NCBI GenBank assembly: GCA_963812015.1
Contig: CAWETI010000003.1
Span: forward strand, 224,001-288,000
Direction: 5' to 3'
Length of the DNA: 64,000 nt
From: an uncultured delta proteobacterium
Lineage (GTDB): Bacteria > Desulfobacterota > Desulfobaccia > Desulfobaccales > 0-14-0-80-60-11
Part shown: piece after piece, positions 4,501 through 19,362 of the stretch
Position numbering within the stretch: position 1 is the first letter of the stretch
How the letters are laid out: each line of letters starts with the position of its first letter
Notes under the pieces: generated by a model
Seen by the model: the letters and a program-made list of their open reading frames with translations, nothing else
Database searches by the model: none
Told to the model about the DNA's origin: nothing
Position numbers and translations under genes: made by a program

Positions 4501-6429
4501 ATGTCTAAAGTAATCGGTATCGATTTAGGCACCACGAATTCCTGTGTGGCCATTATGGAAGGTGGCGAGCCTAAGGTCATCCCGAATGTCGAGGGGACCC
4601 GCACCACCCCTTCAGTGGTGGCCTTCACCGAGAGCGGCGAACGGTTGGTGGGGCAGATTGCCAAGCGCCAGGCCATCACCAACCCTTTAAATACCGTGTT
4701 TTCCGTCAAACGGCTCATCGGCCGGAAATTCAGTGACCCGGAAGTGCAGCGGGACCTGAAGATCCTCCCCTACAAGATCGTCCAGGCGGAGAACGGCGAC
4801 GCCCACATCGACATCCGGGGCAAGGTCTATTCCCCCGCCGAGATCTCGTCCATGATCCTCACCAAGATGAAGCAGACCGCGGAAGAGTATCTGGGGGAAA
4901 AGGTGACCGAGGCCGTGATCACCACGCCGGCCTACTTCAGCGACGCCCAGCGCCAGGCTACCAAGGACGCCGGGCGCATCGCCGGCCTCGAGGTGTTGAG
5001 GATCATCAACGAGCCCACGGCCGCCTCCATGGCCTACGGCCTGGATAAAAAGAAGGACGAACGCATCGCGGTGTTCGATCTGGGGGGCGGCACCTTCGAC
5101 ATCTCCATCCTGGAGATCGGCGAAGGCGTCTTCGAAGTCAAATCCACCAACGGCGACACCCATCTGGGCGGCGACGACTTCGACCAGCGGGTCATCGACT
5201 TCCTGGCGGATGAGTTCATGCGGGAACAGGGCATCAACCTCCGCAATGACAAGATGGCCCTGCAGCGCCTGAAAGAAGCGGCGGAAAAGGCCAAAATGGA
5301 GCTTTCCACCTCCATGGAGACCGAAGTCAACCTGCCCTTCATCACCGCCGACGCCTCCGGCCCCAAGCACCTGCTCATCAAGCTTAGCCGGGCCAAGCTG
5401 GAGGGCCTGGTGGCGAACCTCATCGAAAATATGGTCGGCCCTTGTCAAAACGCCTTGAGGGATGCCAAAGTCACCCCCAAAGACATCGACGAGGTCATCC
5501 TGGTGGGGGGCATGACCCGTATGCCTAAGGTCCAGGAGAAGGTCAAGGAGATCTTCGGCAAGGAACCCCACAAGGGGGTGAACCCCGACGAAGTGGTGGC
5601 GGTGGGCGCCGCCATTCAGGCCGGGGTCCTCAAAGGGGAGGTGAAGGATGTCCTCCTCCTGGACGTCACCCCCCTGTCCCTGGGGATCGAGACCCTGGGA
5701 AGCGTCTTTACCCGGATCATCGACCGCAACACCACCATCCCCACCCGGAAGAACCAGGTCTTCTCCACCGCGGCGGACAACCAGACTGCGGTGACCATCC
5801 ATGTGCTCCAGGGCGAGCGGGATATGGCCGGGGATAACAAGACCCTGGGGCGGTTCGAACTGTTCGGCATTCCGCCGGCGCCCCGGGGCATCCCCCAGAT
5901 CGAGGTCACCTTCGACATTGACGCCAACGGCATCGTCCAAGTCTCCGCCAAGGATATGGGCACCGGCAAGGAGCAGTCCATCCGCATCACGGCGACCAGC
6001 GGTCTTTCCGAGGAGGAGATCAAGAACCTCATCAGGGATGCCGAACTCCATGCCGAAGAAGACCACAAGAAGCGGGCGCTGATTGAGGCCCGCAACCAGG
6101 CCGATACCCTGATCTACACCACCGAAAAGACCGTGACCGACCTGGGGGACAAGGTTGACGCGGCCACCAAGGCGGACATCGAAAGCCACGTCGCCAGCCT
6201 CAAGACCGCCATGGAAGGGACTGACCAGGAGGCCATCAAGCAAAAGAGCGAAGAGCTGATGAAGGCTTCTCACAAGCTGGCGGAACAGATGTACGCCAAA
6301 TCCGGCGCGGCCGGCCCGGGCGAAGGCCCGGGTGCGGGTCCCGGCGCCGGGGCGGGCCATGGCCACGAAGAGAAGGCCAAGAAACCCGAAGAGGAAGTGG
6401 TGGAGGCCGAATTCGAGGAAGTGAAGTAG
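4501..6429 (+). CDS. dnaK: chaperone DnaK (Hsp70)
   Basis: '[11 protein letters not shown]', 'DLGGGTFD', 'GVNPDEVVA'; RBS AGGAGG. Confidence 0.99.
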
Positions 6430-10317: not shown

Positions 10318-10394
10318 GGCGGTGTAGCTCAGCTGGTTAGAGCATGCGGCTCATATCCGCAGTGTCCGGGGTTCAAATCCCTGCACCGCCACCA
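10318..10394 (+). tRNA. tRNA-Met (CAT), elongator type
   Basis: 77-nt cloverleaf: acceptor GGCGGTG/CACCGCC, D-arm GCTC/GAGC, anticodon arm TGCGG-CTCATAT-CCGCA, T-loop TTCAAAT, encoded CCA; G1-C72 paired. Confidence 0.95.
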
Positions 10395-13189: not shown

Positions 13190-13507
13190 TTATTGGCCGA
13201 ATAGGCGCTTCCAGACCCCCCTGGTTTCCGGCTGCGGCGCGGGCAGCCCCAGGTGCTGCCGGATCACCGCCTCCAGTTTATCTTCAGCCACATCGCCGCC
13301 TTCCACCACGATCTCTTCCCCCACCATCACCGCGGGAGCCGTCGGCAGGTCCATTTCGAAATATTCGTCCGTCTGGTACTCGGCGATGGGTTTGGAAGTG
13401 GTCTCGATCTCAACCTCAAACTTTTGGCCCAACCTGGGCATCATTTTTTGAAAGTGCTTTCATGGCTTGCCGTTAGGTTCGTTCATGAAAAACCTGACTT
13501 TTAGCAA
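13190..13507 (-). CDS. thioredoxin-like selenoprotein, NEPNGKPU motif (TsoC-like), U16
   Basis: RBS AAGGAGG, then TTG at 13507 (or ATG at 13513). MLKVRFFMNEPNGKP-TGA(13460-13462)-KHFQK continues in frame into the 13190..13444 ORF. SECIS-like hairpin follows. Confidence 0.85.
13415..13459 (-). promoter_or_regulatory. SECIS-like hairpin for the UGA at 13460
   Basis: GCCCA-GGT-TGGGC (13427-13439); loop starts after 25 nt from UGA; lower stem TTTCAAA/TTTGAGG. Confidence 0.65.
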
Positions 13508-13527
13508 TGTCATCCTCCTTTGCAGAG

Positions 13528-15264
13528 TTATTTCTTCGCCACTGCGGCCATGCGGGGCAGCATCAGCGAAGGGGGCAGATAATCCACCAGCCGCAAATTC
13601 TGGCACTCGTTGCCCTGGCCGTCCAGAAAGATCACCGTGGGCACGCCTTTGATGGCGTACTGGCTGAGCAATCGCTGATGCACCGGATTGCCTTTCTGGG
13701 TGAGGTCCACTTTGAGCATGACAAAATTCTGCTCCGCCAGTTTCACCACGTCGGGATGATGAAAAGTAATCTCGTCCAGCTCTCGGCAAGGGGTGCACCA
13801 GGTGGCGTAAAAATCGATGATTACCGGCTGGTGCGCGGCTTTGGCTTGGGCCAGCACTTGATCCGAGTACGGCTGCCAGGTGACGCCAGGGCCCCGCAAG
13901 GCCCAGGAGCCCACCAGGAAGGTGGCGAAAATCACCCCCGCCAGGGCCACGGCGGTCTTGAGCCACGGGAAACTCCGGAAAGTGGCCGTGGAGCGGTCCA
14001 GCCAACCCAGGTTTATGGCCGCCGCCAGGGCCACCCCGGCCAGGAGCGCCTGGCTTGCGGTTTCGGGCAGCAGGGGCCGGACAAAATACGCGGCCATGGC
14101 CAGGAGCACCCAGCCCATGAGTTTGCGCACCCAGAGCATCCATTCTCCCGACCGGGGCAGTCTCTCCAGGCTGCCGGAAAAGAGGGCCAGGATAAAGAGG
14201 GGCAACCCCAACCCCAGGCTCAGGGTGAAGAAGACCAGAAAACCCAGCCAGGGCGATCCCATGGAAGCCACCCAGGTTAAGAGTCCCAGCACGAACGGCC
14301 CGATACAAGGCGCCGCCACTACTCCCAGAGTCAGGCCCATAAACAGGCTGCCGAAGTAGCCGGCGTAGGATTTGGACGCCGCTTGCGTCAGGCTGCCGGG
14401 CAGGCGCAGTTCCCAAAAGCCGAACAGGCTGGTGGCAAAGAAGACCAGGATGGCGGCCACCGCCACCAGCACCAGGGGATTTTGCAGCAAGGACCCCATG
14501 AGCCCGCCGGTCAAAGCCGCCACCACCCCCAGGGCGGAGTTGGTGACGGCCAGGCCCCCCAGGTACAGGAGGCCATGGACCAGCAAGCGGCCCCGCCCCT
14601 GGCCGCTTTTGCCGCCAAAGTAAGAAACGGTGATGGGGATGATGGGATAGACGCAGGGGGTCAGGTTAAGGGCCATGCCGCCCATGAAGATGCCCAGCAT
14701 GGTCCAGACCATGGCCCAACCGGAAAGCAGGCCGGGGGCATAGGCCTCCGGCGCGTAATCGCACAACCCCAGGGGATCGCTGGCCACCGGCAGCCTCCGG
14801 CTCTGCCATTCCGGAAACCCCAGGGGATCGCGGTACACGTTTTTGTAACCCAGCTTGACGGCCACCCGGGCCGCCGAGTCGCTCCGGACTCAGGCCAGGC
14901 CTGCTCAGTAAAACACCACCAGCCGGTCTTTATCCGGCCCCAATAAGGCCGCCAGGCCACCTTGAGACCGCCACCGCGACCACCAGGTGGGCTCCATGGG
15001 GAAATTGATCGCCCCCTGGATATGGCCGCTGCGATACTCCCAATCCTGGCGGGTGTCCACCAAAAACAGCTTTTGGGAGTCCTGCCGGTAACGCTCGGCC
15101 AGTTCAGCGGTGTTGATCAGGCGGTAGCCGCCGCTCCTGGCTTCGGCCAGCACGTCTTCCCCGCTGGCCTCTTGGGGGATTATCGGACGGTTGACATGCC
15201 AGAGCACCCCCAGGGTAAGGGCAATGGCCACCAGGGCCAGGAGCGTGGTCCTGCGGTTTTTCAT
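13528..15264 (-). CDS. rhodanese-DsbD(beta)-thioredoxin fusion selenoprotein (TsoB-like), U120 and U125
   Basis: ORFs 14905..15276 and 13528..14865 share a frame and are separated only by two TGAs: VVFY-U-AGLA-U-VRSDSAAR. DsbD motifs 'LTPCVYP' and 'AAPCIGP'; thioredoxin 'WCTPC'. Confidence 0.88.
14857..14891 (-). promoter_or_regulatory. two adjacent SECIS-like hairpins for the UGAs at 14905 and 14890
   Basis: GAGTC-CGGAGC-GACTC (14876-14891), loop after 18 nt from the first UGA; GGCGGCC-CGGGT-GGCCGTC (14857-14875), loop after 21 nt from the second. Confidence 0.6.
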
Positions 15265-15281
15265 AACCAACCTCATGGCGC

Positions 15282-15734
15282 TTAAGACAACTTTCCTGCC
15301 CTTTGCAACTTCGAGATGAGGAAGGTTGCGCCTCTTTGGGACAGGCCGAGCTGCGCGGCCAAGTCTTGAGGAGTGAGGGCCCCTTGCCTTTGGGCCAGAG
15401 AGATTACCTCCTCCTCCAATTCATCCAGCCAGTCCTCGAAAAGGACCAGCAAGTCCGGGTCGGCGACGGCCATCAGTTGCCGGGATTGAGCCACCCGGTC
15501 CACCAGTTTCTGACACATATGCGTTGGATCGACACCTTCGTCCATGCATTCCGCCAGTCAGAGGTGCACCATGCTGGATACCTTATCGTCGCCGGCGCCG
15601 CCGATGAGATTGACGACGAAAATCAACCGATCTTCATCGGTAACCAAGGGTAGGATGGTTTTCAGCGTTGCGGCGATTTCGGCCATAGCTTGCGCCGGGG
15701 CCATGCTCTTCAGTATTTCTTGAATTCCGGCCAT
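15282..15734 (-). CDS. LULAEC-motif selenoprotein with C-terminal HTH-like segment (TsoA-like), U59
   Basis: RBS GGAGGTGA, ATG at 15734. MAGIQEILKS...SSMVHL-TGA(15558-15560)-LAEC-MDEG continues in frame into the 15282..15545 ORF. Confidence 0.85.
15510..15557 (-). promoter_or_regulatory. SECIS-like hairpin for the UGA at 15558
   Basis: Nested pairs CTGGC/GTCAG, ATGC/GCAT, TGGA/TCCA region and GAC-GAAGGT-GTC; loop G after 18 nt from UGA. Confidence 0.6.
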
Positions 15735-15756
15735 GGTGATGAATCACCTCCCCAGG

Positions 15757-16092
15757 CTAAAAAGTTTTCCTCTCGGCCAGCAAATCCGTGGCCAGATCTT
15801 TCAACGCCGCTAAAATCTCCAAGATGCGGCCGTCGGCGATTTCGTAATATACAAAGGGGCCGCTCCGCTCCACCTTGACCAGGAGGGCCCGCCGCAATTC
15901 CTTCAGGTGGTGGGAGACCAGGGGCTGCGACAGATTCAGTGCTTCGACGATCGCCGAGACGGATTTCCTGCCATGATTGACGCACAGCAGAATCCTGAGG
16001 CGGTTTTCATCTGACAAACTCTTGGCCACAAAGGCGACCGTCTGGAGGTATTCCTCCAACGGCATCAGTGGCTCACGACCCGGTGGTGCCAA
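15757..16092 (-). CDS. ArsR/SmtB-family transcriptional regulator (TsoR-like)
   Basis: 'KSLSDENRLRIL', 'SVSAIVEALNLSQPLVSHHLKELR', 'ERSGPFVYY'. TTG at 16092 has RBS GGGAGG; alternative ATG at 16065. Confidence 0.93.
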   Translation of the reverse strand: MAPPGREPLMPLEEYLQTVAFVAKSLSDENRLRILLCVNHGRKSVSAIVEALNLSQPLVSHHLKELRRALLVKVERSGPFVYYEIADGRILEILAALKDLATDLLAERKTF

Positions 16093-16124: not shown

Positions 16125-16172
16125 GATAATCATATAAATAGATATTTATCTGTTTATCTACTTGGCTGTCAA
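16125..16172 (-). promoter_or_regulatory. promoter with overlapping 16-2-16 inverted repeat (putative ArsR operator)
   Basis: Minus-strand TTGACA at 16167-16172. GATAATCATATAAATA-GA-TATTTATCTGTTTATC (16125-16158, 14/16 symmetric) covers the expected -10/+1. Confidence 0.75.
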
Positions 16173-16268: not shown

Positions 16269-16360
16269 AAATCCCCCTAAATCCCCCTTTTCCAAAGGGG
16301 GACTTTTAAAGGAATTTCGCTAAGTTCCCCCCTTTGGAAAAGGGAGGGTAGGGGGGATTT
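16269..16360. repeat. palindromic repeat family B (ATCCCCCTAAATCCCCCTTT..AAAGGGGGACT...GGGGGATTT)
   Basis: Double-hairpin inverted element; a close copy lies at 51938-52027. Confidence 0.8.
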
Positions 16361-16429
16361 GGGCTGTCCGCCCTCGCTTCGGGACGCACACCCAGGTGAA
16401 CCCCCTACATATCAAGGATTTTCTTACTT

Positions 16430-18337
16430 CTATGAACGCAACTTAGTATAAGCCCCCTGGCCCCCCAGGGAGCTGCGCCGTTTCAGATAAACCATCAGCA
16501 CGGCCAGGGCCGCGGGGGTGACCCCGGAGATGCGGGCCGCCTGTCCCAGGGAGCGGGGCCGCACCTGCTTCAACTTTTCCCGGATTTCCAGGGACAAACC
16601 CGGCACCCCGTCATAGTCAAAGTCCGCCGGGATGCTTTTGCCCTCCCCCTGGGCGAATTTTTTGGCCGTCTCTTCCTGGCGCTTGATGTAGCCGTCGTAC
16701 TTGTGCTGGATTTCCAGCTGCTCCACCACCTCCGGGGGCACCGGTGGTTCTTCTCCGGCCAGGCGATACAGGGTGGGAAGATCCAGCTGGGGCCGCTTCA
16801 ACAGGCTCAAGACCGGGGTGGGGACTTTGATGGGCGCGGTGCCCCGGGCTTCCAGCTCCCGGTTGACCGAAAGGGTGGGGAAGATCCGGCGGCCCGTTAG
16901 CCGCGCCTCTTCTTCCCGCATCAAGCGCTGCTTTTCCCGGAAGCGGTCCACGGCCTCCCGGTCCACCAGCCCCAAATCAAAACCCCATTCCAGGAGACGG
17001 GCGTCGGCGTTGTCTTCCCGGAGGAGGAGGCGGTATTCCGCCCGGGAGGTGAACAGGCGGTAGGGCTCCCGGGTGCCCTTAGTCACCAGGTCGTCCACCA
17101 GCACCGCCATATAGGCCTGGGAGCGGTGGGGCAGAAAGGGGGGGCGGCCCAAGATTTGGCAGGCGGCGTTGATGCCGGCCCACAGACCCTGGCTCGCGGC
17201 CTCCTCGTAGCCCGAGGTGCCGTTGATCTGCCCGGCCAGGAACAGCCCCTGGACCCGCTTGGTCTCCAGGGTGGCTTTGAGCTCCAGGGGGTCCACATAG
17301 TCATACTCGATGGCGTAGGCCGGGCGCATCACTTCGGCCTCCTCTAGCCCGGGGACGCTGCGGAACAGGGCCAACTGGACCTCGGCCGGCAGGCAATTGC
17401 CCAGGCCCTTGGCGTAGATCTCGGCAGTGTCCCGCCCCTCCGGCTCCAGGGTCACCTGGTGGCTGATCTTCTCGGGAAACCGCATCACCTTGTCTTCCAG
17501 GGAGGGGCAGTACCGGGCGCTCACCCCCTTGATCACCCCGCTGTATAACGGCGAGAGGTGGATATGGTCCCGGATGAGCTTATGGGTGGCGCCGGTGGTG
17601 TGGGTGACATAACAGGCCACCTGCTCCAGGGGCAACGCCTGCGTGCGCCAGGAGAAGGGGCGGGGCCGGGGATCGCCGGTGAGCACCTCCAGGCCGGCGA
17701 AATCAATGCTGCCGGCCGCCAGGCGCGGCGGCGTGCCGGTCTTTAAACGCCCCATCTTAAAGCCCAGGTCCTTGAGGCAGGCGGCCAGGCCGGTGGCGGC
17801 GAACTCTCCGGCCCGGCCGGCGGGGATGCGGCAGTCCCCGATGTGGATGAGGCCGTTCAAAAAGGTGCCGGTGGTGATGAGCACTGCCCGGGCCCGGTAA
17901 TTGAGGCCCAGGGTTTCCACCACCCCCACCACCCGGCCGTCCTCCACCAGGAGCCGCTCCACCATGGATTCTCTGAGATCGATGCGGCCCTCTTTTTCCA
18001 GGTGGGATTTCATGGCCAGGCGATAGGCCTGTTTGTCGCACTGGATGCGGGTGCCCCGGACCGCCGGCCCTTTGGAGAGGTTGAGGGTGCGGAACTGGAT
18101 GCCGGCCTGATCCGCCAGGTAGCCCATCATCCCCCCCAGGGCGTCGATCTCCTTCACCAAGTGGCCTTTGGCCAGGCCACCCACCGCTGGGTTGCAGGCC
18201 ATATGGGCCATGGTGTCCAGGTTGAGGTTGAAGAGCAAAACCTTCAGACCCATGCGGGCCGCAGCCAGCGCGCCTTCGCATCCGGCGTGACCGGCGCCGA
18301 CGACGATCAGATCATAATCTTTCGGATAAAAGGCCAT
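16430..18337 (-). CDS. mnmG: tRNA uridine-5-carboxymethylaminomethyl(34) synthesis enzyme MnmG (GidA)
   Basis: '[10 protein letters not shown]', '[11 protein letters not shown]', 'RLKTGTPPR', 'RYCPSLEDK', '[14 protein letters not shown]', 'TSRAEYRL'. Confidence 0.98.
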
Positions 18338-18861: not shown

Positions 18862-19251
18862 TCACCGGTCCCACTCCACCTCCCGCACCAAGTCGATGAA
18901 CTCCTGGGACTCGCCGTAGAGTTTCATGGACTGCTGGTAATCGATCCAGGACTGCCAGAGGGCCACCCACTCCTTATTGTGCCAGTAAAAGGGGCTTTCC
19001 TCGCCTTTTTCTTTAATCCGGACAAAGTCCTCGTACTCCTCCTGGCAAAAGGGGCAGAACCGGTAGGGACCCGTTTGCCGCTTGTACATTTCGTGGGTTT
19101 CGAATTGGATCCCGCACTTGGCGCAGCGGGCCAGGCAGCGGGTACACTGCACCATCTTGCGCACCGCCTCCATCTTCTTGGCCCGATCCACCTTGGCTTT
19201 TTTCTTCTGCTCCAGCTTGATCCGGTCTTCGATATCGATGATGTTGGACAT
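18862..19251 (-). CDS. hypothetical protein with Cys clusters (possible Zn finger)
   Basis: 'CTRCLARCAKC...CPFC'; RBS GAGG before ATG at 19251. Confidence 0.75.
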   Translation of the reverse strand: MSNIIDIEDRIKLEQKKKAKVDRAKKMEAVRKMVQCTRCLARCAKCGIQFETHEMYKRQTGPYRFCPFCQEEYEDFVRIKEKGEESPFYWHNKEWVALWQSWIDYQQSMKLYGESQEFIDLVREVEWDR

Positions 19252-19362
19252 GACTGACCTCAGAGGGGGGAATTGCCCCGGCAACGCCTTTTCCCCTCAA
19301 TAAAGCATATCAGGCGGGCCAGACCGGGTCAAGAGACGGCGCAGGCCCTCATTCTTTTCGGG

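Follow-up and report, generated by a model that had tools for sequence, protein, structure and literature searches.

The window, the whole 64,000-nucleotide stretch of DNA that was analysed, carries on its reverse strand the operon tsoR-tsoA-tsoB-tsoC, with gaps of 22, 5, and 14 nucleotides between the genes and all four products scoring above their NCBIfam cut-offs. The first gene, tsoR (15757..16092), encodes an ArsR/SmtB-type regulator (NF045707, 165.9 bits against a cut-off of 115). It is followed by tsoA (15282..15734), the gene of a 150-residue LULAXC selenoprotein (NF045695, 224.2 bits against 170, covering positions 1–143 of the 144 in the profile), by tsoB (13528..15276), which encodes a rhodanese/DsbD fusion selenoprotein with U124 and U129 (NF045694, 1010 bits against 805), and by tsoC (13190..13513), which encodes an NEPxGxxU selenoprotein with U18 (NF045708, 151 bits against 45). 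TsoB and TsoC were scored after reading through the TGA codons of their genes. TsoA, TsoB, and TsoC are predicted families in the 2026 review PMC13188914, which names the "Tso three-selenoprotein operon", cites Haft & Tolstoy 2025, and in the sections covered here assigns no function to TsoA. The tsoA product matches the whole span of the family model, contains a single selenocysteine (Sec) within the LULAxC motif of Table 1 of that review, with an in-frame UGA (HL-U-LAEC), and is encoded in the same operon as the family, with no family-level difference. The gene is tsoA; it adds a further member to a known family and belongs to the known Tso operon. The names of the family and the operon already existed, and the sequence-only reading of the locus was made unaware of them.

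The operon is located directly after mnmG and has its own predicted promoter. The neighbours identified by resemblance are a MnmG/GidA-like protein (16430-18337) and a small Cys-rich protein (18862-19284), both encoded on the reverse strand, as well as DnaK (4501-6429) and tRNA-Met (10318-10394) on the forward strand. An inverted-repeat element rich in G-runs and C-runs was spotted by eye in the gap between mnmG and the tso promoter (16287-16365); it may be a dispersed repeat or a terminator. A tblastn search of the organism's own genome found no paralogue of tsoA, tsoR, or tsoC. Two identical short stretches on contig C2 of this genome (G000; 808816-808956 and 293404-293544) are 81% like TsoB residues 120–166, and a more distant rhodanese-like paralogue is encoded on contig C3 (1333639-1334106).

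The reading frame of tsoA is as the sequence-only reading had described it. When TGA is translated as Sec, positions 15734-15282 of the reverse strand yield 150 residues followed by TAA, and the single in-frame TGA is codon 59 (15558..15560). The ribosome binding site GGAGGTGA is positioned at 15744..15751, 9 nucleotides ahead of the ATG. The segments HL-U-LAE-C63, HMC74QK, and the C-terminal TPQDLAAQLGLSQRGATFLISKLQRAGKL are all read in frame. Cys63 (15546..15548) forms a U-x3-C motif with U59 and is predicted to be on the same helix face, and Cys74 (15513..15515) is part of a PxxMC motif common to Met-rich homologues. The N-terminal codons are indeed absent from the list of open reading frames, which was made with translation table 11 and a minimum of 70 residues and contains only an 87-residue frame at 15545-15282. 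Homologous tsoA loci were collected from GTDB genomes, and 79 loci from the best 80 of the 97 stretches found were compared. TGA59, Cys63, and Cys74 are kept in 79/79 of them. A lack of homology upstream of the TGA had been named as an outcome that would refute a Sec-containing protein; both flanks of the TGA are homologous in the 79 loci. Among 401 genomes of the phylum, every TsoA match above the cut-off contains a single in-frame TGA.

A SECIS-like hairpin is predicted 3' of the UGA on the reverse strand (15510..15557) from fold energy, covariation, and codon conservation. Its apical stem-loop (15544-15525) exposes the loop AGGUG (15537-15533), 20 nucleotides from the UGA. The 54 nucleotides past the TGA fold with -17.7 kcal/mol (z -2.7), and none of 200 shuffled sequences was as stable. 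In 9 of 66 distinct rows, one pair of the stem has G-C instead of A-U, and it is broken in none; over the 79 GTDB loci from the best 80 of 97, it is A-T in 67 and G-C in 12. The covariation score exceeds those of all 500 shuffles, but it is inflated by kinship and comes mainly from this one pair; six pairs are invariant, and the lower stem shows little conservation. GAA and GGT occupy codons 66 and 67 in 80/80 sequences, and the codons adjacent to them vary synonymously. The genome encodes selA and selB, both above the cut-off, and a tRNA-Sec (74.7 bits) on a small separate contig. Judged from sequence comparison, Sec at residue 59 of TsoA is well supported. The classic Cys/Sec-pair criterion is missing at this site because no homologue with Cys59 was found, neither in the 79 GTDB loci nor among the matches from the 401 genomes. 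The corresponding regions past the TGA codons of tsoB and tsoC fold as single strands no better than shuffled sequences (z 0.0, -0.07, and -0.75), and the fold test therefore does not show a SECIS for these genes, although both contain a small stem whose loop includes GGU.

The same TGA could be a true stop separating two small coupled genes, or could be read as Trp. Most proteins in the databases correspond to a downstream piece of 82–91 residues, 14 full-length database matches among those listed have W at position 59, position 64 holds a start codon in 60 of the 79 loci from the best 80 of 97, and the missing Cys59 homologue fits such a reading too. However, codons 60–63 (LAEC) past the TGA are kept as protein, and codon 64 is CTG in the remaining 19 of the 79 loci. 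A word resembling a Shine-Dalgarno sequence precedes the tsoA start in 66/79 loci, in contrast to 0/60 ahead of codon 64, where a start codon is present, and 0/79 ahead of codon 73, which makes a separate downstream gene unlikely. The next in-frame stop of tsoA is itself TGA in 25/79 loci; therefore, TGA is not generally read as Trp in these organisms. The covarying hairpin and the presence of selA, selB, and tRNA-Sec also speak against a stop or Trp, which is very improbable. The W at residue 59 is probably an artefact of gene callers, which either break tsoA in two at the UGA or translate this codon as Trp; the databases therefore mostly hold fragments. The database entries of the TsoA family contain a systematic annotation error: P0002-P0022 have Trp in place of Sec, and the remaining matches are mostly fragments of 82–91 residues that start past the TGA.

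The ArsR-type protein encoded upstream of tsoA has one Cys, as read from its translation and as the sequence-only reading had stated. This Cys is not conserved: in 34 of 75 loci, TsoR is entirely free of Cys, and the best Cys column is occupied in 39% of 76. TsoR lacks the conserved two- or three-Cys site of Cys-based ArsR sensors, which, according to the part of the review PMC11672702 that deals with them, need three Cys for As(III) and two for reactive sulfur. The sensors SqrR and HlyU (reactive sulfur) and the ArsR proteins of A. ferrooxidans and C. glutamicum (As(III)) are, like TsoR, ArsR repressors with a palindrome at their own promoter, and share with the tso module a cargo of thiol/sulfur or arsenic genes and a cluster of two or three chalcogen residues. 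Whereas these sensors carry the Cys residues in the repressor (PMC11672702, same part), the U/C cluster of the tso module is on a separate HTH protein, and TsoR is without a conserved Cys.

The predicted operator of TsoR is an inverted repeat of the type ATATAAA-n6-TTTATAT (16132..16151, reverse strand), which covers the predicted -10 region and is located 15 nucleotides past TTGACA, the predicted -35 element (16167..16172, reverse strand). The palindrome is found 5' of tsoR in 54 of 72 loci, compared with 8.1 expected from shuffled sequences, with a pattern that was drawn by eye from the same loci. TTGACA precedes it in many homologous upstream regions, and some tso promoters contain tandem palindromes. 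A promoter scan returned two sites, neither of which is the pairing of TTGACA with the palindrome. When the genome was scanned for the operator pattern, many AT-rich matches turned up, and no regulon emerged from them.

The AlphaFold2 model of TsoA, computed from an alignment of 71 sequences, has a mean pLDDT of 76 and a pTM of 0.41. It consists of an N-terminal helical part (residues 4–44), a poorly resolved helix of low pLDDT that carries U59 and C63 (49–65), a helix with C74 (70–83), an acidic helix (93–117), and a helix-turn-helix (HTH) at residues 122–145 (15300..15371, reverse strand) with a pLDDT of about 90; the helical domain as a whole spans about 99–150. The Pfam profile HTH_24 matches residues 103–147 with 25.2 bits against a cut-off of 21.9. 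A C-terminus resembling a winged HTH had been suggested, with failure to model as an HTH as its refutation. The HTH stands, but the wing does not: the chain ends five residues past the recognition helix, and the model contains neither strands nor a beta-hairpin wing. The predicted HTH fold is judged to be real.

The fold search proposed for the C-terminal domain likewise returned generic HTH domains for the last 50 residues, both with Foldseek and with VIA-align. Foldseek found no match to the whole model at E 0.001; the rows that it returned were generic HTH domains with E above 0.2, and the best Z of the wide VIA-align search, 7.4, concerns residues 93–150 only. A separate model of residues 1–92 (pLDDT 77.6, pTM 0.45) gave a lone Foldseek row with E 7.5, and a sequence search of the PDB with the TsoA family profile yielded nothing useful (best E 0.024). 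The winged-helix domains of AsnC/Lrp, IclR, MntR, Z-alpha, and SelB share the helical HTH core with TsoA (rmsd 1.2–2.2 Å over ~50 residues). TsoA matches these families by its last 50 residues only, with generic scores, and their effector domains are absent from it. The structural neighbours also include HTH domains of non-regulatory proteins.

The fold raises the possibility that TsoA, beside TsoR, binds DNA as a Sec-switched transcription factor in its own right, at the tso promoter or elsewhere. HTH_24 scores above its cut-off, DNA-binding HTH domains (such as AsnC, IclR, ROK, and Z-alpha) make up most of the top structural neighbours, S132 is conserved alongside G135 and K142, the helix 132–145 is net basic (median +3), and tandem palindromes are present at some promoters. 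However, the structural matches are generic (E above 0.2 in Foldseek, Z no higher than 7.4) and some are to non-regulatory HTHs, no wing is modelled, and residues 60–150 have a median net charge of -7. W102, G135, F138, and K142 are invariant in the family, and positions 133, 134, 137, and 141 of the recognition helix vary, with 133–134 mostly E/K-E in the Met-rich branch. The recognition helix of TsoR, unlike that of TsoA, is nearly invariant, and the sole conserved palindrome seen is ArsR-like and located at the tsoR promoter. The suggestion that TsoA may bind DNA finds no support beyond the fold; it is unproven because the outward positions of the recognition helix vary and the domain is acidic, and a role as a transcription factor of its own is unlikely.

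The other suggestion, that TsoA partners with the ArsR protein, fares better, by indirect evidence from gene neighbourhood, co-occurrence, and the absence of conserved Cys residues from TsoR. A TsoR match ends at most 500 nucleotides upstream of tsoA in 78 of the 79 GTDB loci from the best 80 of 97, a near-obligate linkage. In the same loci, tsoB is found 3' of tsoA in 44/79 (41 of the 71 with room for it) and tsoC in 57/79 (55 of the 66 with room). In the 401 genomes of the phylum, at E 1e-20, the TsoA model matches in 41, the TsoR model in 39, and both in 37, counts in which kin genomes are not independent. TsoR is present without TsoA in G221, where tsoR contains an internal TAA, and in G287. 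TsoA-like proteins without a TsoR match occur in G275, where a divergent ArsR adjoins, in G321, and in G191, beside one noise match. A predicted complex of two TsoR and two TsoA(60–150) chains, from 120–121 alignment rows, scored 0.22 against a mark of 0.32, with controls that were unfolded.

Genes further downstream encode VTT proteins (27 loci), DsrE-like proteins (clusters of 10, 6, and 5 loci), SQR-like proteins (8), TauE (7), DsrC/TusE (5), and SelD (4). The 10-locus cluster has no Pfam match at 1e-5, and we take it to be DsrE-like by resemblance. At two loci (L160:1346-1684 and L161:1294-1746), TsoR occurs without TsoA and is followed directly by a DsrE-like gene that contains an in-frame TGA (U-x-x-C or U-G-K). 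Tandem duplicated tsoR-tsoA pairs are present in L167 and L168 (G046), L164 (G056), L041, and L071; in L167, a frameshift interrupts one of the tsoR copies. Two tsoC paralogues occur in several loci. A divergent TsoA (L169:1052-1525 and L162, from G397 and G275) keeps U-x3-C and has Ser in place of Cys74; it scores 102 bits, below the cut-off, and follows an ArsR closer to that of the Met-rich branch.

A search of 1.84 billion representative sequences for homologues of TsoA gave 196 matches at E 0.001, including many Met-rich proteins. The Met-rich proteins are homologous to TsoA residues about 64–149 (hhalign probability 99.75), and all 47 tested match NF045695 below its cut-off. They form an unnamed HTH family (automatic names are hypothetical, HTH_24, and FeoC-like), which, like TsoA, follows a TsoR-like ArsR with a similar palindrome. 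It differs from TsoA in its Met-rich N-terminus, the absence of U59/C63, arsenic-type cargo, and the Cys-tailed ArsR. The Cys74 equivalent is kept in 58% of 45 rows. The best 80 of the 287 metagenome loci found were compared, of which two lacked an anchor and were unscored. ArsR is upstream in 53 of these 80 loci, and in 38 of the 43 with room for it. The one such ArsR tested scores best against the TsoR model, and in a quick tree the ArsRs of the Met-rich loci group with TsoR (SH-aLRT 89, with five other ArsRs inside the group). By eye, 50 of the 53 have a Cys within the last 32 residues. The palindrome recurs in 24 of 41 loci against 3.7 expected. The cargo includes genes for an ArsM-like methyltransferase, Acr3, ArsC, MTH895, and ArsP-like proteins, and is often of arsenic type. 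A small Trp/Met-rich gene is often positioned between the ArsR and its partner; in L114 (1615-1833) and about 35 Met-rich loci, the gene in this position encodes 72 residues starting with MWWWNGPPPMWGMWW, with no Pfam match at 1e-5, no NCBIfam match at 0.01, and a weak SHOCT match in a relative.

It would be wrong to regard all Met-rich homologues as selenium-free, since 26 of the best 80 of 287 loci contain an in-frame TGA. They read PPMME(K/R/N)-TGA-MQ(M/I), as does L166, and comprise L113:2664-3026 and 25 further loci among L102-L157. L166 (1220-1579) comes from genome G191, in which selA is present. Most of these loci have a short stem with an AGGU loop. Cys occupies the site in eight loci (L103, L117, L124, L131, L139, L147, L152, and L158), four of them distinct, and the hairpin is retained in half of the Cys-form loci. 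In a tree built with one of every three TsoA rows, the U and C forms are closely related and make up one group. The sole NCBIfam match of the PPMME-U proteins is NF045695, far below the cut-off; the family table of PMC13188914 has no entry for a PPMME-U-MQM subfamily, and the main text of the BSepDB paper PMC13326102 contains neither "Tso" nor "LULA". The Met-rich PPMME(K/R/N)-U-MQM proteins are a candidate subfamily of Sec proteins whose Cys counterparts occur naturally, outside the catalogues checked. A lone homologue (L144:95-97), on one contig and with its start cut off, has a TGA at the site equivalent to Cys74 (PMDM-U-RQMM). Read as Sec, these codons and codon 59 of tsoA place it at three different positions within the same segment of the superfamily.

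The Met-rich branch also bears on whether TsoA is a carrier or sink of sulfane sulfur, selenium, or a soft metal(loid), that is, the first cargo gene under TsoR, without a regulatory role. Methionine binds copper and silver, and the Met-rich N-termini suggest buffering of soft metals. The neighbours are relay and detoxification genes (DsrE, TusE/DsrC, rhodanese, ArsM-like, Acr3, and ArsC), and a first cargo gene would likewise stay next to its regulator. However, the linkage to ArsR is tighter than that to any enzyme or transporter and persists even where the cargo is entirely exchanged. It is not obvious why a carrier would require a conserved HTH in which W102 and F138 are invariant, and TsoR itself lacks a conserved Cys. 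A purely carrying function is rather unlikely.

The reading that we prefer, with a probability of about one half, is that TsoA is the selenium/thiol sensor subunit of the ArsR-type repressor TsoR. TsoA is likely to be the chemical sensor of TsoR because tsoA nearly always follows the gene of a repressor that has no conserved Cys. From genomic context, we infer that the two proteins bind each other, and the ligand and the direction of control would be as follows. TsoR may bind the palindrome that overlaps the promoter and thereby repress its own operon, and TsoA may contact TsoR through the conserved acidic helix (W102 and E107) and the hydrophobic face of the HTH (F138). A sulfane-sulfur or selenium species, or a soft metalloid, would modify U59, C63, and C74. 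Modified TsoA would then lift the repression of genes that handle thiols, sulfur, and selenium, namely those of rhodanese-DsbD, TsoC, DsrE, SQR-like proteins, TauE, TusE, and SelD. A three-ligand site formed by U59, C63, and C74 is putative, and the model has a pLDDT of 52–75 in this region.

The sensor role is favoured by a linkage to TsoR that is tighter than those to tsoB and tsoC (78 versus 44 and 57 of the 79 loci from the best 80 of 97), and by the distant Met-rich homologues, which likewise follow TsoR-like ArsRs. Against it stand Ser in place of Cys74 in the divergent proteins of L162 and L169, the net basic helix 132–145 with its invariant K142, which fits DNA binding, and the TsoR of G287, which occurs without TsoA. 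The ArsRs of the Met-rich branch have Cys tails of their own and nevertheless keep the partner; therefore, the partner must do more than supply thiols. A broader interpretation, which we put forward tentatively and with less than even confidence, is that of a two-protein ArsR switch in which the thiols have been handed to the HTH partner TsoA. It would be an old, cargo-swapping cassette with Sec at up to three positions, one of them that of the uncatalogued Met-rich PPMME(K/R)-U-MQM subfamily with Cys counterparts. The cargo of the cassette consists of sulfur/selenium relay genes at tso and arsenic genes in the Met-rich branch.

The literature searched offers no function for TsoA and no comparable ArsR accessory protein beyond PMC13188914, and Haft & Tolstoy 2025 and its supplements may already note some of these points. 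The 119-family table of PMC13188914 includes no HTH or ArsR-linked selenoprotein by name, and its sole regulator-like entry is a putative FmdB protein. The gene itself is a rediscovery; what the analysis adds is a function that can be tested for a family that had a name but no known role. With the Met-rich Sec subfamily, the catalogue of the selenoproteome would grow. If TsoA senses for TsoR, Sec would act in gene control, TsoA would be a selenoprotein that controls transcription, and an ArsR protein would sense through a separate subunit.
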